A stretch of 63,473 bases of DNA, counting the filler, from Folioceros fuciformis (Eukaryota): NCBI GenBank assembly GCA_049999805.1. It is 19 parts of 19 records of this genome, joined end to end, with 100 filler letters (N's around TTAATTAATTAA, not from the genome) between each part and the next. Parts side by side here need not be neighbours in the genome. Positions count along the whole stretch, not along the records: positions 50,481 to 52,150 come from JBNGIO010002995.1; 18 more parts are not named here. One strand, given 5' to 3'. The notes under the pieces were generated by a model. It made no database searches. It saw nothing but the letters and a program-made list of their open reading frames with translations, and was not told the DNA's origin. Shown one piece after another: positions 5,065 through 60,830 of the stretch (position 1 is its first letter; every line of letters begins with the position of its first letter). The translations under genes and the position numbers were made by a program.

Positions 5065-5076
5065 TGGTATCAGAGC
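5065..5076 (+). promoter_or_regulatory. Primer-binding site (tRNA-iMet) of a Copia element
   Basis: TGGTATCAGAGC immediately after an LTR-ending CA at 5063-5064. Confidence 0.92.
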
Positions 5077-5107
5077 CTCATATGCTTCGACAATCCCTCA
5101 AGCCATG

Positions 5108-5900: not shown

Positions 5901-6394
5901 TAACCTGTCATTCTGCGTGCTTGGGACATATCAGTTAGAAACCCTAAAAAAAAAAGTAACTGAAACGTTGCATGAGAAGAAGCGTCATCAACCTTGACTG
6001 TGCACCTTTTGTATCAGGAAAGTCGATGAGGGAGGAAGCTTGTTAGAGGTCAGATCCTCTGGTCATATCAGAGTATCCGCCCACCCTCCCAGGCTGTCTC
6101 TCCCATCGAGCCCCCTGAACACAAGTCGTCAGCCCTCAGTATTCTCATGAACATACGATCAAACGAGAACAGAAACCAACATTCGAACTCAGCTATTTCT
6201 TTTTATCACTCTGACCATAGCAAAGAAGTGATCTTAGCAGAGTTCGCATGTCCAGTTTTGTTTTGGACGATAGTGACCAAGCTAGTTGTCACCAATCTAC
6301 CTCCTCAGAGGAGGACGTAGGTGAAGTCGATTTAGCGGCCTACCTTGCCGCTAACTTTTGGCAGAATCCACCTATCACATAGACCGTAATAAAA

Positions 6395-6675
6395 ATGACA
6401 ACCCCCTCTTTTACGTCAGACTTGAAGGAAAAAGATAGGTTTAATGGCACTAAGTACCCTGTATGGAGAGTGCGCATGAAAGCCATCTTGATCCAAAAGG
6501 TTGTTGGAGTGTGGTTGGTGGATCTTTTGCAGAACCCGATCCCATATCAGGCCCTCAAGTTGACAAGGACAGGTGGGTAGCTTGCAATGAGGTTGCTGTT
6601 GCCGTCCTCATTAATGGGCTGGACACAATCCTTGTCCCTGACGTTGAGTACCTGACCAAGGGAATTCAAATATGG
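6395..6675 (+). pseudogene. Copia gag N-terminus (frameshifted, cut by contig end)
   Basis: KEKDRFNGTKYPVWRVRMKAIL, then CWSVVGG...W, typical of the Copia gag N-terminal region. Confidence 0.85.
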
Positions 6676-16275: not shown

Positions 16276-16481
16276 AGTTGGAAGACTACATGCGGAAGCA
16301 TGTCTTCAAGCAAAGAATATGATTAAGAACTAATATAAAAGTACAATAGTTGTGCTTTTATAGGCATCACCCTAAAGGGTGTGACCTTTCACTAGCCTAG
16401 CTAATTAACCTTACACATAGTGTGCTAAGCTAACATGACTTAGGGTTACATAACTCTAGTGAACTGCTACCCCTTCTAACT
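16276..16481 (-). mobile_element. Copia 3' LTR (206 bp) with AG...CT termini
   Basis: Bounded by AGTTGGAAG and CTTCTAACT (9-bp inverted repeat, 1 mismatch). PPT (TGAGAGGGAG on minus) abuts at 16482. Shares ATGCGGAAGCATG with the LTR at 52770. Confidence 0.78.
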
Positions 16482-18803: not shown

Positions 18804-19002
18804 AGTGTGCTCTACTGACAAGAAGTGACTTAAACAGTTTACTACAAGCCTGACCTTCCTGTCCAGCACACAAGACACGAGGACAGCTCATTGGATGAAG
18901 CAACCTGCATATTCAGTCGTGAAATGCTCTCTGCATCGACAAAAAGCAAAGAAAAGTAAACCTTCACAGCAGTGATTTACCTTTTTCAGGCAGGCAAGCG
19001 CC

Positions 19003-19244
19003 TTAGGTATCACTAGCTTTAGGCACACCGCTGACTGCTCCAGTATATCCAGGCGTGTTCAGTTCCTTCACAAGGTGCTGTATTTCACACTCTAACAGTG
19101 AAAACATGGTTGGATCCCGTGATGGGAACTTGGCGAGCAAGTCTCGAAGGTCCAAGACCCGACACTTCGCGGCCTTGATTGCTTCTTCGACCTCCTCGCA
19201 CTTCTGAGCAGTCTGAAGCAGATGACACACCAAGTTTCTATCTG
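19003..19244 (-). CDS. Antisense ORF fragment downstream of Copia pol (copy A)
   Basis: Helical CEEVEEAIKAAKCRVLDLRDLL segment, open to the contig end, and retained in copy B (47192-47433). Confidence 0.5.
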
Positions 19245-20971: not shown

Positions 20972-22807
20972 TCAAGCGGAACTACATTCCACAGGATGGC
21001 TCCATCCGATCCTCTGAGCCTGTAAGTCGTATACGATGTGACGATTTTGCTGCTGCGCATTCCCAAAGATGGCAGGCCCTTCCTCATTGGTTCCCAGCAT
21101 GACAAGGAGACACGCAACGTCGGAAATCTCGGAGCTGTTGAAGGGAAAGCCAAAGACGTTCTCTTGTCGAAGGTTCATGATGGCTCCTCCAGCGAATGCG
21201 AAACTCACTTCCGGAAATGTGGGATTTGAGACTTCAGAAATATCGTAGCAAAGATAGTTCCCGGTCTCCGACGTTGTGGGATAGGAGACAGTAGCTTGAA
21301 TTGTCTGGACAAGAGGATTGTAAGCGGCCGCGTAGAGGACGGTGAAAGTGGTTCCAGAGTCGAAGATAAGTCCTCCAGTTCCTGCATGAGCAACATTCAC
21401 CCAACCGTGGTTGATCAGGACCTTGCAAGAGAATGCAAGGAAAGGATTCTCACCGTGTCAAAATACTGGACAGTTGTGAATTGGAGCAAGTGGGCACCAT
21501 CATCCTGGATATCAAACGTCCCCTGTGGTATGGACAGTTGTTGGCCTCCAACAGAGATGGAGTCTAGACCAACGTAATACAGGCCAAATTCGTTGCTGAT
21601 GAGCGGAGTAAACTGAACTGCGCTGGAGATGGCATCACTGCCAACGATCAAAGGACTTGTAGCAGTCGGCGAACCACCCCAGTTCATTAAGCAGTAAGAG
21701 AAAATGTTCCCTTCTTCTGACGCCACCTGAGCCAGTGGGGAACACAACTCAGTAACTTGTTTACGCTGTTAGATCATTCCTTGCCTAGTTTAAGTGGGGC
21801 ACAAAAGGTCCATCGGCTGTCACAGAATGGTCAGATTGCAGGTATTACAAGATGGTGGAGCATCCGAGATGTACCTGAGATGCAAATGAGATATCCTGCA
21901 TCCCAAGTCCCATAACGCCATCGACGTCTGCAAATTCTTCACTGACGTCGAAGCTGAGTCCAAAGATAAAGTTTGGCAGATGATTGCTCTGCCCACCTCC
22001 TTCTTCAGGTAGTGTAACGGTGTCATAGGAAAGCGTGCCTGACGTTCTTGATCCATCTTCATAGTTGTATTCGTAGATGCAAACGCTACCTACAAGCACA
22101 AGACGAGAGTTGTGGGCCTGGCCTCCAACTCCAACGTAGTCTGATGAAATTATGTGCAACAGGTTCTTACCAAGTTGGCAATACATGGAGCCCTGGCTCG
22201 AGCACGTCACGTCTGCACAGCTCGGCACTCTGTATGTTAATGAAAGGGCAGCATTGAACTGATTTGGTCTACCACCAGTGAGCCATACCAAATCGCTTCC
22301 AGTGTCCATAATCAGCCTCACATTCTGAGGAGGGGTTCCGAGAACAAAATCCACCACGTGATCCCCCTCAAAGGCGTACGAAGGGGAAGTATACTCGGGG
22401 TTATAAACCTTGTTGCGGTGAGCTCTACGATGATGGTTCCCACTTAGCCTCTCCCGCCTGCGTTCACTTCGTTCCAGTGCGTCTTGGAAATAGGCAGCCA
22501 GCTTGAATTTTCCATTCACAGCAAACTTGCTGCTGGACTGAGACTGGTTCCCTCCTTTGTCAACACCGACGCTTCTTCTTGAAAGCGTAAACTGAAGTCT
22601 CTTTGATTCCTTCTGAGCCTGGTAGCTGCTGGTGTGCTGAGCATTTGAAAGCTCTGTAGGCCGGTCAACACCATCAGTGTCGAACACATCAGACTGCAAC
22701 CTTGTGGCAGAAGTCACAAAAAATATTGAACACACAATAACACAAAGAACAAATCTGCTGCTGCTTCGAGTTCTGCTGGGATGGAAATGGCATGGTGGTA
22801 CTGCCAT
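20972..22807 (-). CDS. A1-family atypical aspartic protease (nepenthesin/CDR1-like, TAXi_N + TAXi_C), about 496 aa, 4 exons
   Basis: Exons 22807-22171, 22089-21875, 21726-21498 and 21381-20972, joined by GT-AG introns, total 1491 nt in one frame. Hydrophobic N-terminal segment, GTPPQ, catalytic DTGSD and DSGTT, FSYCL, GNAQQQN..YDL...IGW. Confidence 0.9.
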
Positions 22808-24323
22808 GATGTTGCGAAGTAGTTGGGTTCCAAATTGCCAATGAGAATGTAGCCTGATTGGGCTCACAGAGAAGTCAGGAATCTGAAAGGGGGGCTGGTC
22901 TAGATACTACAGGTCCTCTCGAAAGCAAAGCAAGGATGTCGCCCATATTGGATGCTGGTGCTTTGTAAGGTTTGTCTTCGAGTTGGGAAGATCACCAATT
23001 CTGGTGAGCATGCAGAGGGTAGGAATTGACAACTGTTAAGAGCATGGATTGGGCGTGTGATAAACCTACCGACTGGCAGACACGGTCTATGTTTGACATG
23101 TTGCAATTGAAGGTTCCTGTGAAAGTTGGGACTGGTTAAGCATGGGAGATGCAGCCATTCTTGATTCGGTCTTCACATGTTTCTTTAAGGGAACAGGTGA
23201 ACAGCCTTGATTCAAATGGCAGCATATGTCAAGATCGATCACCATACGGTCACATCGGTTGTCGCTATCCATCACCCAAAATTGCTCCTCTTTCCTTCTG
23301 AGAATAACAGCCGTGAAACTCATGTTCCTTATGTTGTGTGTACAGAAGCTAGGCTCAATCTTCCTCAGCAACCTGCCCACACGTTAGACACAGTAGAGCT
23401 GCCGTTCCCGACGATTTTAGCGAAACCGTTCTTATGGCACACGAAGGGATTAAACATAGCATTCGATTGCGATGTAGGTCGATGTCAAAGCACGAGAGCA
23501 TTTCTTCTGCTGATGGTGCAGAAAGACTAGAAACATCGTTCCCCCGTTCCAGCTTTCAAACTTCGTTCAGACTGCGTTTCAGGTCCCTTGCGACGGGATC
23601 CACAAGAGCCACTTCGAAACCATTGTGAATTTCTGCGAACCCTTGGAGTCATTGCCTAGTCTAAAGCTCAGCCGATAACAGGGCATCCCACAAACCCCGG
23701 ACCGACACATACTCGTTCAGCTGATGGTGCCAGGATGCAGTGAAACTTGAGACTCAGACCTATGCTGTTCAGCGGTCTTGTAGGCACTGGAGCTCTTCTG
23801 AAAGCCTCAACCACATTGCAAAGGGCCATGGTAACCGTGAGCGTTTGGAGTCAGCTTTGCGGGAATCCATTCAGCATCGTTCAGGAACAGACCTGTCATA
23901 ATCTAGCCATCTCACAACATATTGAAGGTGTCAGGATGAAGCTTAAGAAGCAGCAACAGTGAAATCATATCTACAGTTGTCCAATGGCACTCCAAAAGAT
24001 GGAACCCTGGTCAGACACTCACAGTAGAACAGGATTGGAAGAACTTCAGAAGCTGTGGAATTCCAAGGACTCCAGACCCTTCAAGCCCATGAGGAAATAA
24101 TAGAGACAAATAATAGAAATAATAGGACTCCACACCCTTCAGCCCCTTGTGACGTCAAGCACTCTGGAAAGCCAGACCTATAGGACAAGGATGCCAACAT
24201 GGCCAAGCCTGCAGCTTTCGAAGGCTGTCTTGCCGTACAACTTCAGCAATGTTGACGGATCACAGTCCACCTGTGATCTTCCTGGAACAAAGCTGGTAAG
24301 CGTGTTGTTACAAGCTTGCATGT

Positions 24324-39685: not shown

Positions 39686-39785
39686 NNNNNNNNNNNNNNN
39701 NNNNNNNNNNNNNNNNNNNNNNNNNNNNNTTAATTAATTAANNNNNNNNNNNNNNNNNNNNNNNNNNNNNNNNNNNNNNNNNNNN

Positions 39786-40412
39786 GATGAATTATCAGTT
39801 GTATCCCAACTTCATCAACGTGTCCTGCAGTGCATTCAAACAAATAAGTTACAATTACTTTCGATAGCTTATTTAAAAATAGCTTTTAATACTTTAATTG
39901 CTGCTATTTATCCACTGGAGACTAATTTGTTGTTTGATCTACCTTCACAAAGCTTACCAAATTTAGCAAGAGTGTGTGCATAGATAGGCACTGTAGGGAA
40001 TAATCTCTGTGATTCTTCTTTTACCAAATCTGCCACACATATAGATGTTAATACAATAATTCAACACCTTAAGACAAACAACAAAATTGTGGACAGACGC
40101 TATAATCAAATACAAGGACATTTATCTACAACAAGTGTGGACTTACAGCATCTGAAGGAACAAATTGCTCACATGGACTGCAAGCTGGTTACGCTCTTGA
40201 GATCCAAGCAACCTATTATTTCGTCCTTCAGAGCTGCATCTTGTAAGCATACCAATAAGATAAAACGTGATCGACAATTCTGCTCACCTAATTTATTTAC
40301 ATCTTGTTCAACAAGTACTTACAATGAAGGTGACAAGAGGAGCTATAAGAATGCTTCTAAAAGAGCAGTGTGGGGTCGAATCTTACAACATCAAAGACAA
40401 CATGCATTGTAA
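39786..40412 (+). pseudogene. Copia ORF0 (5'-truncated, one in-frame TAG at 39981)
   Basis: Single frame from the contig start, collinear with the ORF at 50567-51328 (QLHQ, FNTLI, VDR, SVDL, EQI.H.D.KL, CK, F..PN...SCST). Confidence 0.8.
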
Positions 40413-40422
40413 TTAGGAGTGT

Positions 40423-40807
40423 ATGGACGGGAAAGATAGTGATCTGGAAGGGGCAGAGCCTAATTCTGTACCATCTACATCCAACATGGGTGATACAATC
40501 TCATCATCAACTCTTAGTACAGAAACTTTCAAAGAAAAGGATAGATTTAATGGTACTGACTTTGATATTTGGCTTATCCGGATGGAGGGTGTCCTTGAGA
40601 TGAGAGGACTCCTGAAATATGCAACCGGAGTGGTAAAGTTCCCTGGCGACGGAACTGCAGCAGGAGCATATTGGTTAGCTAAAGACAGCGTAGCCAAATA
40701 CCTCATACGTAGTGGCCTAACATCTAACATGTTGAGGCAGACTGCAGGGGTAAAGACTTTAGCTGAGATCTGGACACGCCTCAAGGAACTCTACGCAGGG
40801 CAGAATA
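40423..40807 (+). CDS. Copia gag N-terminus
   Basis: FKEKDRFNGTDFDIWLIRM...AEIWTRLKELY. Likely start at 40486. Confidence 0.9.
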
Positions 40808-40907
40808 NNNNNNNNNNNNNNNNNNNNNNNNNNNNNNNNNNNNNNNNNNNNTTAATTAATTAANNNNNNNNNNNNNNNNNNNNNNNNNNNNNNNNNNNNN
40901 NNNNNNN

Positions 40908-43763
40908 GCTGCTCATCATTACATTGGTGATCCCCCTCATAGTCCACAACATCAATAGGATCTGGATCTACAGGAGGTGCACAAATAGCAGGTACCAAAG
41001 GCGGGTTAGTCTGTTCATTTTGTGCCTGTAAGAGAGCATCAACTGCTACATGGTCTAACAGAGTAGAAACATCTCCATCTGACTGTGGGTAATTATGTGT
41101 GGACTCTGTATCAATAGGTATACTCTCACGAGTGGTAGACAAGGAATCTGTTTGAGGAGTCAAAAGTTCCTTGAAGGTAACACTACGTGCTAGTGTAATC
41201 TTGGAGGTCTTAGGGTCATACAACTTATAGGCTTTGGATTCCTCTGAATAGCCAACAAAGATGGAGGGTCTAGACCTATCATCTAACTTCCCCCTCTTGG
41301 CTTTAGGGACAAAAGCAAAAGTAGGTGACCCAAAGACCCGCAAGTGCAGCAGGCTAGGCTTGCAACCCCAGAAAGCTTTATAAGGGGTGCAATTAGGCAG
41401 AGCAGAAGTAACAAGTTGATTCAGAATGTAAGTAGTTGTCACCACAGCTTCTACCCAGAATGTTTTTGGTAAGGTAGCCTACGAGATCATGCTACGTGTC
41501 ATGCCCATCAAAGTTTGATTTTTGCGCTCAGCAACACCGGTCTGTTGTTGTGTATAGGGCACTGACAACTGGCAAAGAATACCATACGCCTGGAAAAGAT
41601 CATCAAACCGATGGTCAATAAATTTCACTCCATTATCAGTCCGGAATCATCTAACAAGCCGTCCAGTGTGTCTCTGGACCGTAAGGATCCAAGTTGAGAA
41701 GTGTTCGAACACATCACTCTTTAACTTGATACGGAAGGTCCAAGTATAGCTGGAAAAATCGTCAATCAGTGATAGATAGTATTCTGCTCCACCAAGAGAC
41801 TTCACAGGCAGCTTTCCAGCAATGTCAGCATGCACAAGTTCAAGGACAATAGTTGCCCTAGTAGGTTGTTTATTCTTGAAAGGCAATTCTTTTTGTTTAG
41901 ACAGTATGCAGGATGTGCAGGTTGGCACATGCTTGAAACATCTGGGGAGCTTTTCTCTGTAGAAGGTGGAGTTCGACATGAAATCCAACTTTGACTTGTT
42001 CACACGGCCCAACCTCGCATGCCACAGGTTAGCCTTTTCATTGTACAAAGCAAGAAGGACTCTAATGCGTGACTTAGACACCTTGACCAGTTGATAAAGA
42101 TCATGTACTAAGACAGCCTTAGAAAGATTCTTCTCTCGACATGTAAGGAAATACAGATAGCACGTACTACTTTCAAAATGAAAACCATATAGATTCATTC
42201 TAGAAATGGCTCTAACAGACAATAAGTTTCTGCTCATTGCTGGAACAAACAGAACTTCCTGAAGGTGCAGGGTTGAACCATCAAGAAGTGGTATGTCTAC
42301 TGTACCTGTCCCTTTTACCTCAACGCCCCGTGCATCACCCACAAAGACTGACTGAGGGGTTTGCAGTTTGTGAAAGGAAGAAAACATTTGTCGATTGTTG
42401 CAGACGTGAGCAGTCGCTCCCGAATCAACGAACCAATGCTGAGTGTTCTATTTAGTTGAAGTCAGACAAACTGTAAGTACAGAATTGCTGCTTTGAGGTT
42501 GTTGTTGGCCATTCTGAGATTTTGCTTCCTTGGATGAAACATGAGCCTATGATCTAACATTCTTTTTGGGCTCTCCAGCTCTCTTCTTTCTACAGTCACG
42601 TTCCCAATGCCTAGGTATCTGGCACTAGTTGCAACTGACGGTGTGCTTAGTGGTGGAGGAAGAGGTACCATAAGTGTTTGAAGAATTCTTCTTACTTTTG
42701 TCAATAAGTGAATAACGTTTCAACAAACCCTAAGCATATCACATGACTTCTAACTGATAACCGTTTGTGCCTGCAGACATTCTCAGAATGCAAGGGACGT
42801 GACCCAAGGACATCTACAACACCATGACACTCCAACCAACAGGCGCAATCTACAGCACTGCCTGTTGAGAGCTCCAGGGCAACGAATTGTAAATTCGCAA
42901 GCTGTCTCTCACACCCCTTTAGATCTGAGGGGTCATCTTTGGCTGATCCTCAGCACATGCTCCATCTCTCATGGGAACAAGAGATTCCAGGTATATCGCT
43001 GCAACTGGTTGCAATGCAGAGGTAGAAGCATGTGTTTGTTGAACTCTGAATTGAGTAAGCTGAATAACAAGTTCTGCAACTTCGGATTGCAGGGACTCCA
43101 CACTTCTGATCACTTCACCAAGTCTTGGAATTGTAAAGGCAAAGGTATGGTCAGCAAGCAATTCGATACTGTTCAACTTGAGGATGAGATGGTCAGTTAT
43201 ATAAGGACTTGCTGTAGAATCAAGTTGCTCAAGTAGTACTCCATCTTCAAGAACTTCTCCTAACCAATTTTCTCGTTCAATCCTTGATTGCAGAAGCTCA
43301 ATCCGCCTGGAAACCACTTGACTGGAGTAGTTGTGGGAAGAGATAGAAAATTCTCTCACCCTGTCCTTCTTCCTAGCATCTAAGAGCAGATCATTGAGTA
43401 GTCTACTAATGTAATCTGCCCTAGCAGCCCAAGGAGATGAAGAGATAGGCTCTATACGCCTACCACTCCTTCTAGGCATTTTAAGCATAGGAACAAGAGT
43501 CAAATATGCCTATCATTTGAGATTGCTAGGACACTAGAGTAGACACACTAGACTCGACATATTTGCAATCACATTGCAAGCAACATAAGTAGAAGTAGTA
43601 CAGCGGAAGACTCAAAGCATCGAGAGCTCTGATACCATGTTATTTTATGCATTTGTTCAAGGATTATTTAGACAAAGAATACTTGAGACAATGCAGCAAA
43701 AGAACGTAATTCAATTAATACAAAATTGTAGCTTTTATAGTGTCAAGTTTGTTAAACCCAAAA
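40908..43763 (-). mobile_element. 5' half of a Copia element (LTR end, PBS, ORF0, gag with N-terminal deletion, PR, INT)
   Basis: PBS TGGTATCAGAGC at 43626-43637, zinc knuckle, WFVDSGAT, LWHARLG and DDFS. A 47-nt end overlap links it to the contigs at 17020 and 45135. Confidence 0.92.
42919..43479 (-). CDS. Intact ORF0 (about 186 aa, coiled-coil) downstream of PBS
   Basis: ATG at 43479 (MPRRSGRR...), no internal stop, heptad VIRSVESLQSEVAELVIQL. Confidence 0.65.
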   Translation of the reverse strand: MPRRSGRRIEPISSSPWAARADYISRLLNDLLLDARKKDRVREFSISSHNYSSQVVSRRIELLQSRIERENWLGEVLEDGVLLEQLDSTASPYITDHLILKLNSIELLADHTFAFTIPRLGEVIRSVESLQSEVAELVIQLTQFRVQQTHASTSALQPVAAIYLESLVPMRDGACAEDQPKMTPQI

Positions 43764-45134: not shown

Positions 45135-46992
45135 TGATGTTGTGGACTATGAGGGGGATCACCAATGTAATGATGAGCAGCTAGGTGCTTTTGAAGACTC
45201 AGATAACAGTGAAGCTCAAAGTGATGTTGTACTGTCAAATCTTGATGAGACTGCTGATGCTGATCCTCCTGCTCGCTATCCTGTAAGGATGAGAAGACCA
45301 CGAGAGTTATGGGATGAGCCACCTTATCAATTTGAAGATTTCAGGAGACATACAGCAGCCAATGTAACAGACTTGTATGTACTTGATGTCAGACCTGATC
45401 CTCGAACACTTGATGAAGCACTGAATGGTCATAATGGGGCCCATTGGCGAGAGTCAGTTAATGATGAGTACAATAGTCTCCTCAAAAACAAGACGTGGGA
45501 GCTAGCTGATCTGCCACCAAACATAAAGCCTATTACCTGTAAATGGGTATTTGAAACTAAACTAAAGTCAAATGGAACTATAGCAAGATATGAAAGCAAA
45601 CTTGTGGCAAGAGGGTTGTCACAGATTCATGGGATAGATTACGGAGATACTTTCTCCCCCGTAGTGAAGCCCCCATCTGTCAAAATCCTGCTTGCACTTG
45701 CCGCTGAGTTTGATCTTGAACTCCATCAGATGGATGTCTGCACGGCCTTGTTACATGGAGAACTGGAAGAGGTTCTCTACATGAACCAACCAAAAGGATT
45801 TGTTAGTCAGAAATGACCAGGTAAAGTCTGCAAACTTTTGAAGACTATCTATGGTTTGAAACAAAGCCCTAGAGCGTGGTACAAATGAATTATGAAGTTC
45901 TTGTGTAAGGCAAGCTTCTCACAATCATCAGCAGACTCAAATGTATTTTACTGATCTGAGTCTGGGCTCTTTGTCATCCTGGCCTTGTATGTCAACGATG
46001 CGATTCTACTAAGCAACAGCATGTCACACATGAACAAGGTTAAGGATCTTATGAGGAGCAAGTTTGAGATGACTGATCAGGGTGCCCTTCCGTTCTGCTT
46101 GGGTATTCAAATACTTAGAAACAGGCAGGACGGGACAATTGTCCTTCATCAGTCAAAATATCTCAAGGAAATACTTAAACGATTTCACCTGGATGAAGCT
46201 CGTCCTATAACTGCCCCTTCCGTTGTGGGTGAAAAGCTTTCAGTTGGCATGTCCCCTCATTCTGCAGATGAAAAAAAGGATATGGCTAGTGTCCCTTATG
46301 CTGAGGCAGTTGGATGTCTCATTTTCCTGGCAAACTGGACTAGACCAGATATACGCTTCTCTGTTAGTGTGGTAGCTTAGTTTATCAAGACTCAAGGTCG
46401 AGTCCATTGGGCTGCAATAAAACGTATCTATCGTTACCTAAAGGGAACGGTCAATTTAGGCCTGCATTACACTGCTAGTGGCAAGAAGAGTTTTGTGCTT
46501 ACTGCCCTAGCAGATGCAGACTGGGCATCAAATTCAAACACTTGTAAGAGTCTGTCTGCCTATGTATGTTTGCTAACCTCTGGTGCTGTCAATTGGTCAT
46601 GTAAAAAGCAATCTTCATTAGCACTGTCATCTACTGAGGCTTAATACAAGGCCCTCACAGACGCCTGCAAGGAACTTGAATGGGAGAGACAGTTTTTAGA
46701 ATCCATCTTTATGACACAAACTTTTGCAACTCAACTGCTATGTGACAATATGTCTGCTATAGCCCTTGTGGCTAATCCACGATTCCACGCAAGGACAAAG
46801 CTCATAGAGCTTTATCACCACTACATTAGAGATGTGGTGGAGAGAGGTGTGGCTAAGGTGGAGTATGTAAGCAATGATGAAAATACAGCAGACCTATTGA
46901 CTAAAGGGCTTTCTAAGGTCAAGCACTATGAGCATCTTGCTTCTATGGGCTTAAGGGTGTCTACTATGCCGATACGCAAAAGTACAAGATAG
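45135..46992 (+). pseudogene. Copia RT-RNase H (copy B)
   Basis: Near-identical to 17020-18803, with the same contig start and end. Confidence 0.95.
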
Positions 46993-47191
46993 TGTGTGCT
47001 CTACTGACAGGAAGTGACTTAAACAGTTTACTACAAGCCTGACCTTCCTGTCCAGCACACAAGACATGAGGATAGCTCATTGGATGAAGCAACCTACATA
47101 TTCAGTCGTGAAATGTTCTCTGCATCGACAAAAAGCAAAGAAAAGTAAACCTTCACAGCAGTGATTTACCTTTTTCAGGCAGGCAAGGGCC

Positions 47192-47433
47192 TTAGGTATC
47201 ACCAACTTTAGGCACACCGCTGACTGCTCCAGTATATCCAAGCGTGTTCAGTTCCTTCACAAGGTGCTGTATTCCACACTCTAACAGTGAAAACATGGTT
47301 GGATCCCGTGATGGGAACTTGGAGAGCAAGTCTCGAAGGTCCAAGACCCGACACTTCGCGGCCTTGATTGCTTCTTCGACCTCCTTGCACTTCTGAGCAG
47401 TCTGAAGCAGATGACACACCAAGTTTCTATCTG
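47192..47433 (-). CDS. Antisense ORF fragment downstream of Copia pol (copy B)
   Basis: Same frame and peptide as 19003-19244, with a few substitutions. Confidence 0.5.
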
Positions 47434-50380: not shown

Positions 50381-50566
50381 NNNNNNNNNNNNNNNNNNNN
50401 NNNNNNNNNNNNNNNNNNNNNNNNTTAATTAATTAANNNNNNNNNNNNNNNNNNNNNNNNNNNNNNNNNNNNNNNNNNNNAGAAGTGGCAGGAATTCTCA
50501 TATAAAATCATAAATAGATTATAAAATGGTTCTTGAAATTCTCAAAAACACAAAACATATGGCCTA

Positions 50567-51328
50567 ATGAATGGCAATCCTCAAGATGGTGGGCAACAAT
50601 GGCCAGGACGGCCAATTCCCTTCCACGAGCTGATCAACCAGCCAAGGAATCGACGAAGGGGACAGGGTGCGCATACAAATGCAGCAAGACAGACAACTGC
50701 ACAGCAGCTCCATCAACAGATTACAGAATGGACAGCACGCACTCCTAATCAACCTGTTCTAACACTTGAAGTGAGGGAATCCTTCAACACACTGATTGAA
50801 GCCCTCTTTCCTGAACAGCACCATTTGGCGTTCGTCCCACCACCGAGGAACCCTAACAATCTCCCAGAAATTCGGGTACAACGAGCCTTTGACGGCAATG
50901 GTAATCCAAGAGGGTTCCTAACCACACACGTTGCACCACACACCAGTGTCACAGAATTAGCCTCTAGGTTAGAAGCACATCAACGGTATGTTGATAGGCA
51001 TTTTCAGAACATAAGCCAATAACTTGCTGCTGTTTCTGTTGACTTACGTGTGCTGTTGGAGCAGATTGGGCATTTAGATTTCAAGTTGCTTGCTTTGCTA
51101 AAGCCTGCTCTTCTTGCTAACCCTGCCACTAGGGGGACAGCTTGTAAGTCAGCAGCTAAAACTAACAAGCACCATAAATTTGATTATCCTAATTCATGCC
51201 CATCGTGCTCAACCTACGCTTTTAATCGCTGGGAGATTAGAAACCAGAACATAAGGGAAATCATAGGTAGGCAGATGGTCAACCTGCGTAGGTCTGACCA
51301 GCAGATTGGACCTATCTTACCCTTGTGA
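50567..51328 (+). pseudogene. Copia ORF0 (253 codons, one in-frame TAA at 51020)
   Basis: ORFs at 50567 and 51050 share a frame. Homologous to 39786-40412. Ends 160 nt before gag. Confidence 0.8.
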
Positions 51329-51488
51329 GTTGTAGGCTGCAGTAAGCAACCTATCTCCGATGTGCTAATTGCATCAAAGTCTTCTCTGAATCCTCATTTG
51401 TTGACCTGCACAAGTTAGGTCACACAAGTACATTAGTAGCACACTCATAACATCCTCACTGTGAGGAGGGCTAACAGCAGTCTTAGAC

Positions 51489-51787
51489 ATGGGTGACACT
51501 GCTAATCTAGCGGGAGATGGATTCAAGGAGAAGGATGGATTTGGGGGGGCAGACTATGACATTTGGGTCATTAGAATGCGTGGAGCACTACAAAACAAGC
51601 TGTTGTGGGCATGGGCCAACGGAAAAGAAAAGTTTCCTGCAGTCTTAGGTACTCCAACTACTACTGAGCAGAAGGCAATAGATACCTGGACAATCAAGGA
51701 TGAAGCAGCACAGTACCTTATCCGGAGTGGTCTGACGACTGACATGTTGAGACACACCTCTGGTTGCAAAACCTCAGTTGAGATATG
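51489..51787 (+). pseudogene. Copia gag N-terminus interrupted by an insertion
   Basis: FKEKDGFGGADYDIWVIRM...YLIRSGL. Similarity ends at TGTTAAG (51788), the start of an AT-rich LTR-like insert. Confidence 0.88.
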
Positions 51788-53178
51788 TGTTAAGCATGAT
51801 TAATGTTGAGATTAATTAGTGCTAATCCAGCTTATTGAGTTTGTACTAATTAGTGGTAAGAGTGATTAAGGTTATGATTAATATATATATATATAGCTTG
51901 TTAGACTTTGTTATGTTAGGCAAAAAAGTATTGTAGGTTTGGGGTCATTTATCCCATATTGGGCACGAAATGAGAGTGCCACCCATAGGTCCATAACAGA
52001 AGGGATGAACCCACTTAGTATATGTAGTCTAACTCCTTCTTCACTTGTATTGTATTGTTTTTGTAATTCTCCTTTTTATTTGAGTTTAAGAGCCTTGTTA
52101 TAATGCTCTTAGTTTTGGGATTCTGCATCTTGCTTCAACTAACTTGTTTTNNNNNNNNNNNNNNNNNNNNNNNNNNNNNNNNNNNNNNNNNNNNTTAATT
52201 AATTAANNNNNNNNNNNNNNNNNNNNNNNNNNNNNNNNNNNNNNNNNNNNGACCCTTGATAGTTTTTGCTATATAAGACATTTTGTATTCATAAAAATGA
52301 TGCTTTTATCAACACTTGGAACATTCTTAGATCAAAGTTGATATTAAAGACTTGTCTTCAATTCAATAGGTTGCATGCACACTGTCACACAAAATCAGCA
52401 CTCCAAGAATTTTAAAAAGTGAGTATTGTCTTTATCACTAGTATGAGCAATGTGAAGATGTAGGCACATTTTGCATATGTATGATAGTTTATAAAGTCTT
52501 GTGGAAGTCCAATCGAGGAACATAAGAAGGAACTTTGACAAGCTCAACACAAGTAGTTTATTGAGTAGAAGTAGGTTTGGTGGAGGAAGGGATTGTTAAA
52601 GTGGAAGCTTTAGGTTATGGTCAAATAATCTGGCAAACTATCTTAGATCCTCGTATGCTTCGATTACTCTATCGGCAAGCATTTCATCACTGCTCAAACT
52701 AAGATAGGTAGACAAAGGTCCCTCCTAGATGCACGTAATTTGTTATTGACACTTTCCAATATATCTAACTGATAATAAATGCGGAAGCATGTTTGTAAGA
52801 AAAGCATTAATTAATACAAGGGAAGTGTCCTTTAAGTACAAAACTGAATGTGTCTTTTGAGTTATGAGTATAACCTCTAGTCTAGTAACTAGGGTATAAA
52901 CTATGTTAGGATTTCAATCCTAACACTCCTACTAAACCAACATGGTTTATACAACTATAAGTTCGGACTCATAATCATCATATACCATTATGTTCCAACT
53001 ACTCTTAGTAACGGGGTGTACTTCCAACATACACAGCCTGGAGCTCCTGACTGCCTTCCTTATATGCTGAGCTTGCTTCCTGTTCAACAGAACGATTAAG
53101 CGCACAAGCCTGAAGACGAAGACAAGCTCTGGAGCATCACACAACGCAAGCCGTGCTCAGGTTCCTCAGCATATCAAC

Positions 53179-53975
53179 ATGAAGAGTGCTAGCAGCACTG
53201 GCGGGAGCGGAGCACGCGGTCGGTTTGTAACACGTAGAGCAACTCTGCACGCGGTTGAGCCTACAATGGGCGCTCTCCCACTTGATGAGCGCCCTCCAGT
53301 GAGGACTCTGCCACCAGCTTCGATCATAGTTGAGCTGGAATCTTATGAGTTTGAGCCCGAGATGACTAACATTGACCTTGTCACCAACACCACTAATGAT
53401 GACTCAGATGCTGTAGAGAGCTTCCTTCATCGTCAAGTCGGAGCTGGAGGACGAACTCCCACTGCATCTATGCCGGAGCGGCAAGTTGCTGCCGTCATGG
53501 TAACCCTGACTGAAATGGAGGCCCCGCTGGACGTGAAGAGGGCTGAGGTGACCCGACAGCAGGCAGCCCTAGTGGAGGAAGCCGTGAGCATAGCAGCAAC
53601 CCCCTCCGACAGAGCCTTTGATGACATAGAAGTCGGCATAGCTGGAAGGAACCAAGAGTTTAGCGTGTGTGCACATAGATGTTGTCTGTGCCCCCCGTGT
53701 GGAAAGAACCTATACAAGGTATGTAATTTCCTACCTAATCCTGTTCCATGCCATGCCTACGACTCAATTCAAGCTTTACGCTTCATCCACCAGTCATGCA
53801 TGTACAGTGTTCTAACCTAAGACCTTATCTACCCCTGCAGGATGGCTAAGAGCATGGAGTTGTTTCTCATTACAGCAGTGGCAAGAGCCACTAAGGTGAA
53901 GACCCAATGTAGGGATAGCAGCATGCTTCAGCTTTAGCCATAGAATTGCCTAGGATAGTCAGTCTACTTTCATAG
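53179..53975 (+). CDS. Antisense accessory gene of the Copia element, probably 2 exons (intron 53719-53840)
   Basis: 180 open codons, then AAG/GTATGT donor, CTAAC branch point and CCCCTGCAG/G acceptor. Exon 2 has stops consistent with C>T decay. Confidence 0.6.
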
Positions 53976-56900
53976 GATAGCTAAACTCTTTCAAACCTAA
54001 GGCAGCCATATGCTGGAAATGTTTGGCCTTTGGGAGCCCATTTGTGAGTATGTCTACAGTGTTGAGATGAGTGCTGATATACTGTACCTTGATAGCCCCT
54101 CGTTCTGCAACATCCCTAATATAATGGTGAGAGAGCTCAATGTGCTTTGTACGAGCATGAAAACAGGGATTAGATACGAGAGCTATAGCGCTCATGTTGT
54201 CACAATGCAGCATAGTTGGTTCTTTGTGTGTTTGATTCACTGACTCCAGAAACTGCCATTGCCATTTAGCCTCCTTACAAGCATCCGTGAGCACTTTGTA
54301 CTCAGCCTCCGTAGAGGAAAGGGCAAGTGAAGTTTGCTTTTTGCAACTCCAACTGATAGTTCCAGAGGCCAACATGCAACAATAAGCTGACAGGCTCTTC
54401 CTGGTGTCGGCATCTGATGCCCAGTCAGCATCAGCAAATGAGATAAGTTCAAGCCTATTGCTCTCACTGCTTGTATAGTGTAGCCCATAAGATGCTGTAA
54501 CCTTTAAGATAACAATAGATCCTTTTAATGGATCCAAGTGTTGTCTTCCAGGTGACTTAAGAAACTGTGACACCATGGTAACTGGTATCTAGTTTGGTCC
54601 AATTTGCGAGATATATTTAATAGCCGATTGCATATGGGACAGCCTGCATGTCCTCAAGCTCTTGTGCATTCTGAGGAGACATGGTATATGTTAACTTCTC
54701 CCCCACTGTAGAGGGAGTGGCTATAGGTTTAGCCCCATCCAGGTAAAAACTCTTCAGTATATCTTTCAAACCCTTTGTTTGATGCAGGATAATTTGACCA
54801 TGTGGCCTGTGACGCAGAATTTGGATCCCAAGACAAAATTGCAGATCCCCCTAATCTGTCATTTCGAACTCTTGGCGCAGCATAGCTTTGACCTCTTCAA
54901 GTTGATCCTTGCTGCTACTGAGAAGTACAAAGTCATCAATATATAAGGCCATAATGACGAACAAGGTACCAACGGCAAGATAAAAAACATTAGTGTCAGC
55001 AGGGGACTGCTGAAAACCAAACTTCCGTAAGTACTTCATGATCCTTTTATACCAAGCCTAAGGAGACTGCTTATGACCATAAACGGTCTTCAGCAATTTG
55101 CAAACCTTGCTTACTGTTTTAGAACTGATAAATCCTTGTGGTTGTTCCATGTACATCGTCTCCTCTAATTCTCCGTGCAGGAAGGTAGTACGGACATCCA
55201 TCTGCTGTACTTCGAGGTCGTATTCAGCTGCCATAAGCCAACAAGATGCGGATCGAGGGAGGCTTGACGCCTGGTGAGAAGGTGTCACCATAGTCTATGC
55301 CTGGAATCTAACTAAAGCCCCTTGCAACTTAACTAGATTTATACCGAGCAATGGTTCCGTCTGCCTTGAGTTTAGTCTTGAAGACCCACTTGCAGCTGAT
55401 AGATTTCCTGCCTTTTGGTAAGTCCACAAGTTCCCAAGTATTATTTTTTATAAGGGATACATACTCGTCATCAATAGAAGTTCTCCAGTGAGGACCATCA
55501 AGGCCATTAATCGCTTCATCATACATCTGTGGATCAGAACGAACTTCAGGCACGTTAAAATCAAACACATTTGCTTGTGCTCCTCGTCGAAAATCCACAG
55601 CTTGGTAAGGGGGTTCAATCCACTGCTCATGAGGTCGTCTGTCACATGCAGGATACCGGGGTTCCTCCACAATGACAGGTACATCACCAGGTGCTCCCAC
55701 GTCTTGGGCAATAGGTAGCTCACCATCTAAAAAATCAACGGCTTCACCATCATCTGACAGTGAACAAGTAGACTCTGACTGTGCATCATGCTCATCAAGG
55801 AAGTCCTGATCGACATGTGGTCTGTTGCAGGCTCTTTGTCAACATCAACATTATCCACCACAGGTAATAAGTACTCGCCATCAGAATCACGATAGTTCAC
55901 TGCTGGTTGTGGGATAACTGATGGAGGTGGAACTGCTGCAGATACAGCTGGTGTAGAAATTTCAGCTAGTGGTTCAGAACTTGGATTGTCCTCCTCGTCA
56001 GCCAAGATGGGTATATTGGTACCATAGTTTGTAGCTGTACTCCTGCGAGGTGATGAAAGTTCATCCAAGGTTACACTACGAGCTAGTACCACTCTTCTGG
56101 TTGCAGGCTCATATAGTTTGTATGCTTTTGAAACCTCATAGTAACCAAGAAATAATAAGGACTTGGCCTTGTCATCTACTTGCATCGTTTCTGTTTAGGG
56201 ACATAAGCATACGCTATGGAGCCAAATACTCGCATGTGCAACAGACTTGGTTTCTTCTTCCAAAAAACCTCGTAAGGGGTTTTACCACGTACTGAGGTTG
56301 TCAATATTTGATTCAGTATGTAAGCAGTTGTTGTGAGGGCTTCTACCCAGTATTGTTTAGGCAGCCTTACCCATCCCAGCATGCTCTTGGTCATACCCAT
56401 TAAGGTCTGGTTCTTACGTTCGGCCACTCCATTTTGTTGCTGATTGTACGACATTGAAAGCTGGAGTACAATTCCATGGGTTTTAAACAACATTTCATAT
56501 TGGTGACCTATGAACTCTCCACCGTTGTCAGTGCGAAAGCACTTCACCAAGTTGCCAGTCTGTCTTTGTCCCATAGACATCCAGGATTCAATACACTCAA
56601 AGGCGTCACTTTTCAGACAAAGTGGGTACACCCAAGTGTAGCGAGAGTAGTCATATGTTAAGGTAAGATAATACTTAGCCCCACCTAGTGACTTAACTTG
56701 CAGCTTGCTTGCAATGTCCGCATGGACAAGTTCTAACACTGCCTGAGCTCTGTGTGCTTATTTATTTTTGAAAGGAAGCTCCTTCTGCTTCAACATAACA
56801 CAAGATTGATAGACAAGGAGATGCTTAAAGCATGAGGGCAGTTTTTCCCTAAAACAGTCCAAGGAGGCCATTAGGTTCAACTTCTCCCTGTTAACATGCC

Positions 56901-58331
56901 CAAGCCTAGCATGCCACAAGTTTGCTTCAGACGTTGTAGAGGTAACATACACTTCTGGTTCTGCAGTCATGTTCAATTGATAAAGTTCATTAACAAGATG
57001 ACCCTTAGCAATGCATCTACTAGGTTTGGACAAATCATAGAGACAACAGTGGCCTTGCTTGAAAGAGAAGCCATATTTTCCAAACTGGGTGGCCGCATGG
57101 ACTGACAGCAAATTCTTTGACATTGTTGGCACATACAGGACGTCTTCCAACAAGATTTTAGATGCTTCAAATAAGGTAATGGAAACTGAACCTACTCCAC
57201 GTACATCTGCGCCTCTAGAGTCCCCCACGTACACTGACTGTGGTGCAACCTTTGTTGTTAGTGTGGCAAACAGGTCCTTGTTATTACACACATGAGACGT
57301 AGCCCCTGAGTCAATGAACCAGGAGTCAGACAATTCAGCAGAGGACGACAAACGGAATGTAACTGTTAAGACGGTCAAGCGCTCTTCTGTGGAGTGGATC
57401 CCTTGTCTTTAGCAGCGAAATGTGCCTCAGAGCAAGGTTCCTTCTTGGGTTCTCCAGCCTTTTTCTTGCAACAGTCCCGCTCCTAATGGTTGGGAATTTG
57501 ACACCAGTGGTAGACACCTTGACGTTTGCTGGATGGAGTTGAAGTCGTCGAGCTGCTTCCAGGTGGCTGCTGGTGAGATTGCTTCTCCTTCCCCCTTCCC
57601 TTCACAAACGGCTTGCCCTTAACTGCAAATAACACTTTCTCATCTCTTGAGCGAGTGCCCTGACCTGGTTTGTGTCTACTGGCCTCCTCTTGCAGGAAAG
57701 CCCCGACCACAACATTCAGATTGAGGGAATAAGATTGATTTGCAGCAGCAGCGGCATATGTAGCAGATAGTGCCAAGTTCTGTCCAGAAATGAAGGTCTA
57801 ATAGGATGGAGGCAAGGCTGTAAACAGTTGGGCGACCATCTCAACCTCGCTAATCTTGGCTCCTAGTGCAGACAATTGTGCTCGCATCAGCCTCAGCTTG
57901 GTGACACCGAGTCCAACAGGTTCTCCCTCCTAAATCCTGAATGAATGAAAATCACTCCTGACATGCATTAAAGTACAGACATTCTGCACCTTGTATGTGT
58001 CTTTGAGCTGAATCCAGACCTCAGCGGTTGTGGCCAGGAACTCAACCTCAATTACTGTTGTGGCATCCAGCCCAGACAGCAAGATAGCAAGTGCCACTTT
58101 GTTTCCTTTGTCCCATTTCGCTTTTTCATCTGCTGTAGGTTGAACTGCTGCTGTAGCGGAGACACTGTGCGGATTTGGGATAGTGCCATCGACGAATTCC
58201 CATACATCACAGGCATTCAGGTAAACTTGCATGTGTGCTCTCCAGCTTTCATAGTTCATAGGCTTGCCATCGAAACGGTCTTTCTCTTTGAACTCTCCAA
58301 CATAGTTGCCAGCTCCAATAGTAGTAGCCAT
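53959..58331 (-). pseudogene. Copia gag-pol (gag-PR-INT-RT-RH)
   Basis: FKEKDRFDG, WFIDSGAT, LWHARLGH, RTDNGGEF, QMDVRTTFLHG, YIDD, ADADW and RTKHIE motifs, with many disruptions. Confidence 0.95.
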
Positions 58332-58639
58332 ATTGGTGACAAGTATTGCTGGGGTAGCTAAGTGTGGAGGGAGAATGAATCCAGGAAACTGAGATTGCAG
58401 GGATTGTACAAAAGCACGTTCTGTTGCTAAGTCCTAATTTAGATCACTGCTTGAGTCCGAAGACAACCAACTTGAGCCAAACGACATGGGAGAAAATGAA
58501 ACGACATCGAAAGGAGGTAAGTGACGTTTCTAAAAACACTGCCCTTAGGGTTAGATACGAAAGTATCTAAACTAACATGAAGCGTTGCGGGTGAACGCGA
58601 AATTGTGACAAGTGTCAGGACTCATCAACCGTCAACCTG

Positions 58640-59352
58640 GCGACGAACACCGGTTGAAGTCTGCTTGAGTGCCTCCAACACTACACCTTCAAGCCGCTCG
58701 CGTGATCCCCCTCCAATCTGGAGCAAAGGATCCCAAAGCGTGAGGCGCCTTCACAAATCTAACTGCCCATGCTTCGGTGCCATGGTTGGATCCTCGCGTG
58801 TCTAAAGCAAAATGAGCAAATTGGTGGTGACCTGGTGTACTTGCGGCATTGAAGTAGACGCAGATCCAATCTCCAAGCGCTCTAGTCTCTCCGACAGCAA
58901 GGAGAGTGAATTCTGTATACCGTGTAGCAGAGTTTGAACCATAATCGTGCGCTCACCCTGCTGCAACAGTAAGGACTGCTGTCGACAGATTTGTGTAAGT
59001 ATCGATCCCTCTTAGCTGGTGACGCTAGAACGCAAAGCCTCCAGCCTGAATTCAACCAAGGAATCAAGGGTATTGAACCCTCCGTCAATTTCTGAATACG
59101 TCTGTGAGTCTGACCGTCTTGGTCTGTCGTGGCTATTGCAGGGGAGCGGAGATGGAGCTCTTTCCCCCAAATTGAGCTGATGGGGCCTGTTCACAGGTGG
59201 AGGAAATCCCCACTGATTTTGATGGCCTTAAGGAAACCGATGCACAAAGCGATTATTTCCCTGCCGCTCAACTTGGTGTGTTCGACTCCTGTGTTTTCTG
59301 TTCATGTATTGTGACGAAGACTCCTCAGGACGTGGTCACTTCTTCGCGCCAT
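58640..59352 (-). pseudogene. Degraded ORF0
   Basis: MARRS start at 59352. After a frameshift, one long frame with a few TAA/TAG/TGA stops contains the heptad IQNSLSLLSERLERLEIG. Confidence 0.55.
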
Positions 59353-60830
59353 GTTGCAAATGCCACAGACTCATTTACATATCCATTATTATTTTTTAGA
59401 GAATACTAACGATCTCTAGAGTGCAAGCAAAGATGAATTAATAGTCACACAATCAAACATTTCTCAGAGAGAGATTTGTATATTATGTGGTTAGATAAAT
59501 CATCTGATGTCTGTAACATCCTAGAATCAATTAGATGGATCAATAGAGCTGGTGCTCTAATACTATGCTAATAAATGCGGAAGCGTGCTTGTAAGAAAAG
59601 CATTAATTAATAAAGGGGAAGTGTCCTATAAGTACAAAATTGAACGTGCTTTTTGGGTTATGAGTTTAACCTCTAGTCTAATAACTAGGGTATAAACAAT
59701 GTTAGGGTTTCATTCCTAACACTAACATGGGTCAACGAAGAACAAGATCTCATGTGAAGTAGACATATTCTCCACTTTTTAAGAACAAGCCAAATTTGAG
59801 ACAAAATAACCCCTATCAAATATTGTTGAATGTTGATTCTAGTAGTTTTTCTAAAAATAGTAGGAAAAAATCACCTAGTTTTAACTGAAAGCTGGTCATA
59901 TATCTTTTTAGACACACAGCTTATATATATTTTAGGGTTACTTTTTACCACTGAATATTCAATACCCAAATTTTGGTGGAAACATCTAACTTTGAACACA
60001 AAATGGATGATTTCTATATTTTGCAAATACTTTTTAATCTAAGTGTGTTCTAAGCATGAATGATGTCTATATTACTTGGAATATAAAGAGCAAATCACAT
60101 AAGATATATTGCATCCATCTCAACTTAAGTGTTCATCCAAAATGCAACATGTAAAAACATGGACTTCCACCTCTTTCTAAATGCTAGTTACCAATTGTAA
60201 CACTAACTTGCAGCCCTAATAAGTATCTTATTTTGGTTCCTGCATGCCAATTGTAGCTCGTAACCTAGGAGTTCGTCGTCCAAAATCATGTTGCTTAATA
60301 ATTCTAGTATTGTACAAGGCATTGGTGTAAAGTCTCTACTCCATGCTAAGCACAGTGTATCCTTGCTTGCTATGGAATCAAAATGTGGTACTTGGCTAAG
60401 ACGGAGACAAAGTAAAGGAGGAGTGAGGGAGGGAGGGAGAGAGAGAGAGTGATGGTGACATAGAGTCGTCACCAGCAGTCACCAAAAGCTAGAACATCAA
60501 GTAAAAGTGGGGGTGAAGTATAGGAAACATCAGTGGGAGGGAAAAAGAGTGCGAGAGCAGGAGGGAGGGGGCATGGACCTGAACAAGTAGCCTCGCCCAC
60601 GGATGAGTATGGAGTCGAGACCAGAAAGAAAGAAGGGAGCTCAAAGTGGAGGTTTGTATGAATCCCCTCCAACGTCCGAAAATGGAGTAAGGAAGGAGTA
60701 ATCGGAGGAAGAAATAGAGAGCGACAAGGGGTCGGACCTGTCTCACAAGTTTGAGGTTACACAAATACTGGGTGGGGTTGTCAATCGCATGGTTGTGGCC
60801 ACACACTCCACGATTGTTGTAGTGCACTCT

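Follow-up and report, generated by a model that had tools for sequence, protein, structure and literature searches.

Organisation of the two loci

The window, i.e. the whole 63,473-base stretch of DNA analysed here, is composed of 19 short unplaced contigs joined by 18 identical artificial linkers made of runs of N. Two of these contigs, designated A (39786-40807; 1,022 nt) and B (50481-52150; 1,670 nt), each carry a reading frame, ORF0, that lies directly 5' of the N-terminal part of a Copia-type gag (Table 1). It should be pointed out here that both are unrelated short contigs and not chromosomal neighbours. Position 39786, taken in the original prediction as the start of copy A, is the very first base of contig A, and this copy of ORF0 is therefore 5'-truncated. 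The window as a whole appears to represent unplaced, repeat-rich plant DNA, since its other contigs hold pieces of Copia and gypsy polyproteins as well as a single gene fragment of plant type that carries a TAXi_N domain.

Table 1. Features of contigs A and B, the linkers bounding them and a further Copia element of the window.
Feature	Position	Strand	Remarks
ORF0, copy A	39786..40412	+	208 codons; 5' end cut by contig start; internal TAG 39981-39983; terminal TAA 40410-40412
Heptad-repeat (coiled-coil) segment, copy A (predicted)	40041..40187	+	residues 86-134; a/d excess 0.74
Spacer, copy A	40413..40485	+	73 nt; TAG 40414-40416 closes gag frame; in-frame ATG 40423
Copia-type gag N-terminus, copy A	40486..40807	+	runs to contig end; cut beyond gag codon 107
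ORF0, copy B	50567..51328	+	ATG 50567 to TGA 51326-51328; 253 codons; one internal TAA 51020-51022
Heptad-repeat (coiled-coil) segment, copy B (predicted)	50942..51088	+	residues 126-174; a/d excess 0.69
Spacer, copy B, ORF0 stop to conserved gag start	51329..51488	+	160 nt; 5 stops in gag frame
Copia-type gag N-terminus, copy B	51489..51786	+	ATG in strong context (MGDT...); similar to copy A up to about 51786
Very high-copy repeat interrupting copy B gag	51787..52150	+	outside the element; from word depth and loose ends
Contig linker	50381..50480	.	N44-TTAATTAATTAA-N44; artificial
Further linkers bounding contigs A and B	39686-39785, 40808-40907, 52151-52250		
Complete old Copia element	52770-59721	-	LTRs of about 156 nt; identical 5-nt flanks; PBS 59565-59554

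Similarity of the two copies and coding status of ORF0

The 253-codon frame with a single TAA that had been predicted at 50567-51328 was found with the same coordinates and content. Its alignment with the frame in contig A, claimed to be collinear over about 200 aa, was reproduced by a single BLASTP comparison, in which 60 of 196 residues are identical (31%), with 47% positives, 4 gaps and an E-value of 2e-26. The Smith-Waterman score of the pair is 225, compared with a mean of 30.9 (sd 4.8, maximum 64) over 300 shuffles, and the pairs of frames other than ORF0 reached only 24-41 on the same strand and 24-81 on the reverse strand. Each copy contains one stop in the ORF0 frame versus 7-24 stops in each of the other five frames. 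At the DNA level, the self-comparison of the window revealed no blastn match between A and B at E ≤ 1e-10, nor was there one between the A and B leaders at E ≤ 0.01 with a word size of 7; the peptides are indeed far more alike than the DNA. The observation made on the A/B pair is thus confirmed.

The single stop found in each frame could speak for a chance similarity, or for a conserved leader RNA or DNA of non-coding character. The probability of such an explanation is considered practically negligible in view of the E-value given above, of the fact that none of the 300 shuffles came near the observed score, and of the other frames being without signal; there is, moreover, no match at the nucleotide level, and a conserved RNA element would give the opposite pattern.

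In a nucleotide-only MAFFT alignment, the identity of the two ORF0 copies at codon positions 1, 2 and 3 is 0.49, 0.55 and 0.38, respectively (Fisher p 0.003), the values for the adjoining gag in the same alignment being 0.68, 0.65 and 0.41 (Fisher p 0.0002); third codon positions are thus the least conserved in ORF0 and in gag. The Nei-Gojobori proportions are pN 0.46 and pS 0.81 for ORF0, and pN 0.30 and pS 0.78 for gag, with dN of 0.72 in ORF0 versus 0.38 in the gag N-terminus, i.e. ORF0 has evolved about twice as fast. No dN/dS value is given for the A-B pair because the synonymous sites are saturated (pS 0.81). Despite this saturation, a collinear frame of about 200 aa has been retained in both families.

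The frame-specific similarity, the third-position pattern and the relation of pN to pS argue together for ORF0 being coding, and in line with the past selection on the protein postulated originally—supported here by similarity in the ORF0 frame only, by the least conserved third codon positions and by pN 0.46 versus pS 0.81—ORF0 is very probably a real, selected coding ORF. As judged from these alignments, the codon-position pattern is typical of a constrained protein. The sample behind the comparison consists of the two window copies, both of them broken.

Relation of ORF0 to gag

The stretch following ORF0 was assigned to the Ty1/copia type of gag (Retrotran_gag_2/DUF4219) based on PF14223 (Retrotran_gag_2), which scored 32.3 bits in copy A (cut-off 27); the match in copy B, where gag is truncated at 51786, reached 24.8 bits (E 1.7e-5) and lies below the cut-off of 27. 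A weak match to DUF4219 was seen in copies A and B. The two gag stretches are 50% identical to each other, and each opens with an ATG whose strong context is conserved (aacATGg in copy A, gacATGg in copy B, continuing as MGDT...). With the PF14223 matches and the short spacers of 73 nt (A) and 160 nt (B), the position of ORF0 immediately ahead of a Copia-type gag is borne out for both copies.

With regard to the reading frames, gag is in the +1 frame relative to ORF0 in both copies, and the terminal stops, TAA 40410 in A and TGA 51326 in B, are at most 2 codons apart in the DNA alignment. In copy A, the frame-0 stop TAA 40410 and the gag-frame stop TAG 40414 stand side by side, just ahead of an ATG. 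Since there are stops in both copies and gag is in the +1 frame, ORF0 appears to be a separate cistron and not an in-frame extension of gag. It corresponds in this respect to what has been called eORF-5'F or 5' aORF, i.e. a sense ORF that precedes the polyprotein frame and is distinct from it (stops 40410 and 51326), and not to an N-terminal domain of gag, the frames being separated and no Pfam match having been obtained at E ≤ 1. That ORF0 is a separate ORF of a Copia element is regarded as quite probable.

Two ways of joining ORF0 to gag expression were rejected. A +1 frameshift fusion of ORF0 and gag was dismissed for copy A, where TAG 40414 closes the gag frame after the ORF0 stop. Simple leaky scanning to gag was dismissed as well, since ATG triplets are not depleted between the starts of ORF0 and of gag, with 11 in copy B versus 13.8 expected and 7 in copy A versus 11.8 expected. 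The ATG at 40423 in copy A is located 10 nt past the ORF0 stop, and copy B has no ATG at the place aligned with it. Both gag starts are preceded by AG dinucleotides, which are not at aligned places.

The immediate vicinity of ORF0 and gag, separated by only 73 nt (A) and 160 nt (B), also suits a different view, according to which gag would be unusually long and ORF0 its N-terminal part, the stop and the frame offset being products of decay. Extra ORFs (eORFs) that are separate in some elements and part of the polyprotein in others do exist and, according to the text of the REXdb survey, were dropped from its catalogue (PMC6317226). Copies that have decayed independently nevertheless end ORF0 within 2 codons of each other and have gag in the +1 frame in both cases; the stops 40410 and 40414 adjoin just before the ATG in copy A, and the conserved strong-context ATG (MGDT) marks the gag start in both copies. 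In addition, no gag family matched ORF0 at E ≤ 1, and an annotated polyprotein with an ORF0-like N-terminus was absent among 1.84 billion representative proteins. Based on these facts, the long-gag alternative is considered distinctly unlikely.

State of the copies and identity of the element

Copies A and B are dead fragments with one premature stop each. The description of their surroundings as Copia elements holds for the gag N-terminus, which is of the Copia type, but neither the 1.0-kb contig A nor the 1.7-kb contig B displays an LTR, a primer binding site (PBS) or pol. A tRNA-Met PBS motif gave 8 matches in the window at ≤ 2 mismatches, none of them in contigs A and B, where the DNA upstream of ORF0 amounts to 86 nt (B) and 0 nt (A).

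The gag of copy B is interrupted by a nested, very abundant repeat. This is deduced from the jump in word depth, the summed value in Logan contigs of four runs being 3e4-1.1e5 from 51769 on versus 5-360 upstream, and from the loose contig ends, which cluster at 51786-51788 in each of the four runs. Relative to the neighbouring repeats, the ORF0 part has a low word depth of about 5-35. Run X7, guessed to be RNA, covers the high-copy repeat part only (7 of 30 bins).

The Logan contigs of the DNA runs X1 and X2 contain variants of the ORF0 part of the B family that differ by 0, about 2% and about 5%, from which it follows that this family is multi-copy in the source organism; ORF0 is thus spread over two deeply diverged families and at least three B-family variants in these runs. 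The differences of about 5% were counted as 6 in 128 nt and 6 in 103 nt, and the variant of about 2%, found in run X2 and covered over 704 nt, has 13 differences in that length. One of them changes the first letter of the stop 51020-51022, the frame being open there. Among the differences listed for the latter variant, 7 fall within 586 nt of ORF0 and 5 within 115 nt of the spacer (Fisher p 0.03), the 7 in ORF0 being distributed over codon positions 1, 2 and 3 as 1, 3 and 3. The recent B-family copies accordingly carry no purifying signal and what is seen in them looks like neutral decay after insertion.

It is also conceivable that A and B belong to a gene family—gag-only, non-autonomous or domesticated—with an N-terminal partner exon or ORF, the present copies being its pseudogenes. 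Only about 100 gag codons are visible per copy, unaccompanied by pol, LTR or PBS, and the low word depth of ORF0 (about 5-35) relative to the neighbouring repeats would agree with such a family. The existence of several copies that differ by 0, about 2% and about 5% is, on the other hand, what a mobile family would show; there are stops in both copies, the repeat nested in B is typical of repeat-rich DNA, and the contigs are too short to show pol. An origin from a family of this kind is therefore judged quite improbable.

Other Copia leaders in the window

When the window was searched with the hidden Markov model of ORF0, A and B were the only matches among its 2,439 six-frame pieces, and tblastn together with blastn among six leaders likewise retrieved the A-B pair alone. 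Two of these leaders were considered as candidates and rejected: the score of leader C was reached by 416 of 1000 shuffles in the comparison with B and by 100 of 1000 in that with A, and the scores of leader F were reached by 17-239 of 300 shuffles over six frame-by-query comparisons.

Three other Copia 5' leaders present in the window showed no homology to ORF0. In the complete old element included in Table 1, the gag ATG at 58331 leaves a leader of 1,222 nt, and a leader on the contig 5018-6675 extends over 1,318 nt between an exact PBS (5065-5076) and the gag ATG at 6395; no motif in these two is significantly similar to ORF0. A third element has a short leader, with the PBS at 43637-43626 and the gag ORF starting from 43509. 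It may be speculated that long Copia leaders hide ORFs evolving equally fast.

Features of the ORF0 protein

The original prediction described a protein with a basic disordered N-terminus, a coiled coil and a Cys-containing tail. The basic character of the protein is evident from the calculated pI, 9.68 for copy A and 10.25 for copy B. For the coiled coil, the excess of LIVMFY residues at heptad a/d positions was calculated in 49-residue windows at homologous positions in A and B, yielding 0.74 (A) and 0.69 (B) versus 0.39 +/- 0.07 in shuffled sequences; none of the 300 shuffles reached the observed value in either copy. Concerning the tail, two cysteines, C193 and C214 in the numbering of copy B, are conserved, but there are only these two and no zinc-knuckle family matched. 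By eye, a hydrophobic transmembrane-like stretch is not evident in the ORF0 translations.

An AlphaFold2 monomer model calculated from the two-row alignment is mostly helical but unreliable (pLDDT 44.2, pTM 0.22). The uninterrupted segment of copy A, i.e. residues 15-90 of 39984-40409, was modelled in three copies and obtained a score of 0.71, the best of 3 controls scoring 0.26. In the model, the self-interface extends over 40044-40208 and has the form of a parallel, in-register bundle (contacts 43-43, 50-50 and 57-57), with runs agreeing in ≥ 85% of contacts and a partner pLDDT of ≥ 74. Among reference proteins, 21 of 30 with structures solved as one-chain pairs attained the mark for self-association, as did none of 23 solved as single chains, this calibration having been made with two copies (not three) of microbial proteins, and a pass may reflect a generic memory of coiled coils. 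Together with the heptad segments at homologous positions, the three-copy model favours the proposed coiled coil, and it seems somewhat more probable that ORF0 is self-associating through it than that it is not. The protein is accordingly predicted—and this is a prediction only—to be basic and mostly helical, with a heptad segment of about 50 residues and a parallel, in-register homo-oligomeric arrangement.

The claim that the family is not one of those recognised so far agrees with all the database searches, as Pfam, PDB, PHROGs and protein profile searches yielded no relative. In Pfam, 0 families were found for either ORF0 copy at E ≤ 1, including the plant mobile domain, Transposase_28 and Athila ORF-1; an RRM or Transposase_22 was likewise without a Pfam match in ORF0. 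The profile search among 1.84 billion representative proteins returned 0 hits at E ≤ 0.001, and the word-based search of 5.8 billion proteins returned 414 candidates, of which 0 scored. The best E-values were 0.035 in PHROGs, which is not meaningful, and 0.89 among PDB sequences. Neither the 503 pattern matches in metagenome contigs nor the 544 in viral contigs included a confirmed one, and the ESM Atlas gave no usable match with two uninterrupted pieces of ORF0. A comparison of the copy A gag with longer proteins produced 561 candidates, 0 of which scored. From its sequence, ORF0 is placed outside gag, ORF1p and the known eORF domain families.

Some additional ORFs of retrotransposons have been attributed to a transduction-like capture (PMC7264820), and ORF0 could by analogy be a captured piece of a host gene that has no function for the element. 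Captured ORFs are, however, said in the same source to occur in one or few copies (PMC7264820), whereas the frame of ORF0 has outlasted the divergence of two families up to synonymous saturation, with the third codon positions being the least conserved; moreover, no host-like homologue was found among 5.8 billion (word-based) and 1.84 billion (profile) proteins or in Pfam. A captured host piece is thus held to be very unlikely.

Comparison with known systems

The REXdb survey (Neumann et al. 2019; PMC6317226) reported extra ORFs with a minimum of 250 codons in 582 Ty1/copia and 3,372 Ty3/gypsy elements. Those of Ty1/copia, taken over all positions, form 45 similarity groups, most of them without known domains, and the categories distinguished include eORF-5'F; the main text highlights for Copia only the eORF-3'F of SIRE, and the authors ask there whether eORFs have any function at all (PMC6317226). 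ORF0 resembles eORF-5'F in its forward orientation, its size of about 250 codons and its location between the 5' end and the polyprotein, as well as in being fast-evolving and without known domains. It differs in that the survey doubts function (PMC6317226), whereas here a constraint at the protein level can be seen directly in the comparison of the two families. The two copies themselves do not represent open frames of ≥ 250 codons as counted in the survey (PMC6317226), since B, with 253 codons, has an internal stop, and A is cut and has one stop as well. The ORF0 group may well be among the 45 catalogued Copia groups, the per-element lists of which are in the supplements of the survey (PMC6317226).

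As far as Ty3/gypsy elements are concerned, 5' aORFs are described for Tekay chromoviruses, namely in 500 of 523 sunflower group-2 elements (PMC11728184), for Ogre (PMC2533021), and for rice Retrosat-2, where the 5' aORF has itself been named ORF0 (PMC3485330). Their proteins are characterised in these sources by a biased composition, a few helices, long disordered parts and basic NLS-like clusters, with no known domain (PMC11728184, PMC2533021). The Tekay 5' aORFs (rice Retrosat-2 ORF0, RIRE3/8, sorghum Sb7 and sunflower Tekay 13-2) and the Ogre ORF1 were compared with the present ORF0 by description only. The latter is shorter than both the sunflower Tekay protein (about 400 aa) and the Ogre-type upstream ORF of Medicago (1527 bp, Mtr70), and differs from the 5' ORFs of Tekay and Ogre in its predicted long heptad coiled coil. 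The env-like ORF of SIRE (Sirevirus) shares with ORF0 that it is an extra, sequence-heterogeneous ORF of a Copia lineage, but it is located downstream of pol (eORF-3'F; PMC6317226), whereas ORF0 is upstream of gag. No description of an upstream ORF in Copia was found in the main texts searched, the per-element supplement lists of PMC6317226 being outside that search. The original suggestion of novelty therefore stands for the family, which is unrecognised, but not for the kind of ORF, which has already been catalogued (eORF-5'F within the 582 Ty1/copia elements, PMC6317226; 5' aORFs of Tekay and Ogre, PMC11728184, PMC2533021). ORF0 fits a known class, the 5' extra ORFs of plant LTR retrotransposons, and is unrelated in sequence to those of its members that were testable.

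Outside the LTR retrotransposons, an analogy of the "works like" kind is offered by LINE-1 ORF1p and the caulimovirus P3 (virion-associated protein), with neither of which ORF0 has any sequence or domain similarity, so that neither is a relative. Both are small basic proteins that oligomerise through a parallel coiled-coil domain. On a polycistronic RNA, they are encoded immediately ahead of the main gene for replication or for the capsid, which is reached by reinitiation. With regard to the ORF1p type proper, defined by a coiled coil, an RRM and a C-terminal domain, ORF0 has the predicted coiled coil and neither of the other two.

Proposed role of ORF0 and its significance

Based on the above results, it is likely that ORF0 represents a lineage-specific extra gene 5' of gag (eORF-5'F / 5' aORF) of one plant Ty1/copia sublineage, and that this gene was once under selection. 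The proposal for how it would work is that ORF0 would form the first cistron of the genomic RNA and be translated first from the full-length RNA. Its product would act as an oligomeric accessory protein, either nucleic-acid-binding or associated with the particle. The gag-pol could then be reached via termination-reinitiation, or from a processed RNA lacking ORF0; the former is suggested because only 10-73 nt separate the ORF0 stop and the next ATGs in the better-kept copy A. Both the proposed role and the proposed mode of translation remain tentative and rather doubtful.

A bolder version of the same idea, which we regard as unlikely, would see here a truly bicistronic Copia sublineage, in which an orphan basic protein with a parallel coiled coil would be encoded first and gag-pol would be translated by reinitiation after termination, only a few nucleotides further on. 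ORF0 would in such a case be a structural or chaperone component of the particle, ORF1p-like although independently evolved, or a counter-silencing factor, and the leaders of 1.2-1.3 kb in other Copia copies of this genome would be relics of versions of this gene that evolved equally fast.

It should be noted that the finding rests on two dead fragments and adds to a known class instead of establishing a new one. Extra ORFs of plant retrotransposons are numerous, and a function has been demonstrated in almost none of them. The A/B pair represents a rare clean case for Copia, with the constraint apparent across two families, a conserved end of the ORF and a tight spacing to gag, and it brings a testable biochemical property, since the basic protein is predicted to contain a long, parallel coiled coil. 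Should intact copies confirm it, ORF0 would provide a handle on the two-cistron expression by an LTR element and on the role of an upstream accessory protein.

Composition of the window

The window comprises 19 short contigs of 1-9.5 kb each, separated by 18 linkers of the form N44-TTAATTAATTAA-N44, and since the genome is thus represented by non-contiguous pieces, the neighbourhood of contigs within it is meaningless. Most of these contigs carry retrotransposon fragments, the Pfam domains RVT_2, rve, Pol_BBD, gag_pre-integrs and SH3_retrovirus being found on several of them, and a weak Pfam match to DUF4100 is present at 14691-16319. The self-comparison of the window revealed that the contigs 17020-19244 and 45135-47433, both with a Copia reverse transcriptase according to Pfam, are 96-98% identical over their full length; they either belong to one young family as two separate copies or result from a redundant assembly of a single locus. 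It should be pointed out that the aspartyl protease-like frame (see the table) is the sole clearly host-like, i.e. plant, gene piece noticed in the window; taken with the weak match to DUF4100, it points to a genome of plant origin.

Features identified in the window in addition to the ORF0 copies
Feature	Position	Strand	Evidence
Exact tRNA-Met primer binding site (PBS) preceded by an LTR end, contig 5018-6675	5065-5076	plus	motif match
353-aa open frame	21848-22906	minus	TAXi_N (E 2.6e-25) and aspartyl protease domains (Pfam)
Copia	40908-43763	minus	PBS 43637-43626, gag ORF from 43509
Very high-copy repeat	51787-52150		start coincides exactly with the end of copy B gag similarity
Complete old Copia element	52770-59721	minus	two LTRs, matching 5-nt flanks, PBS, gag ATG

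Leaders of the other Copia elements

Concerning the leaders, i.e. the stretches from the PBS to the gag ATG, the complete old element has two LTRs of ~156 nt (TG..CA, 90% identical), a 5-nt flank identical at both sides and a decayed PBS at 59565-59554. With its gag ATG at 58331, the leader reaches an unusual length of 1,222 nt and contains overlapping ORF pieces of 69-102 aa, no similarity to ORF0—the extra frame with a predicted coiled coil just upstream of the Copia gag in copies A and B—being detectable in it. The second long leader of the window (1,318 nt) belongs to the contig 5018-6675, where the Copia gag starts only at 6395, whereas the leader of the Copia element at 40908-43763 is short. 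The former leader, which is decayed and shows no significant likeness to ORF0, exhibits an Arg-rich frame directly after the PBS.

Possible rearrangements around copy B

In one contig from each of the DNA sequencing runs X1 and X2, position 51099 is joined to 51516, skipping 416 nt of copy B that extend from the tail of ORF0 through the spacer into the beginning of gag. The skipped segment has the ends AA..GA and is therefore not intron-like; the shorter side of the junction is just 30 nt. This junction probably stems either from a family variant carrying a deletion or from an artefact of the assembly.

The repeat that begins where the gag similarity ends reaches a summed word depth of 3e4-1.1e5 in the runs X1 and X2, compared with 5-360 upstream, and two further runs, X5 and X7, cover this repeat and no other part of the copy B contig. 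The repeat is probably the terminal part of an abundant element that has inserted into the gag of copy B.
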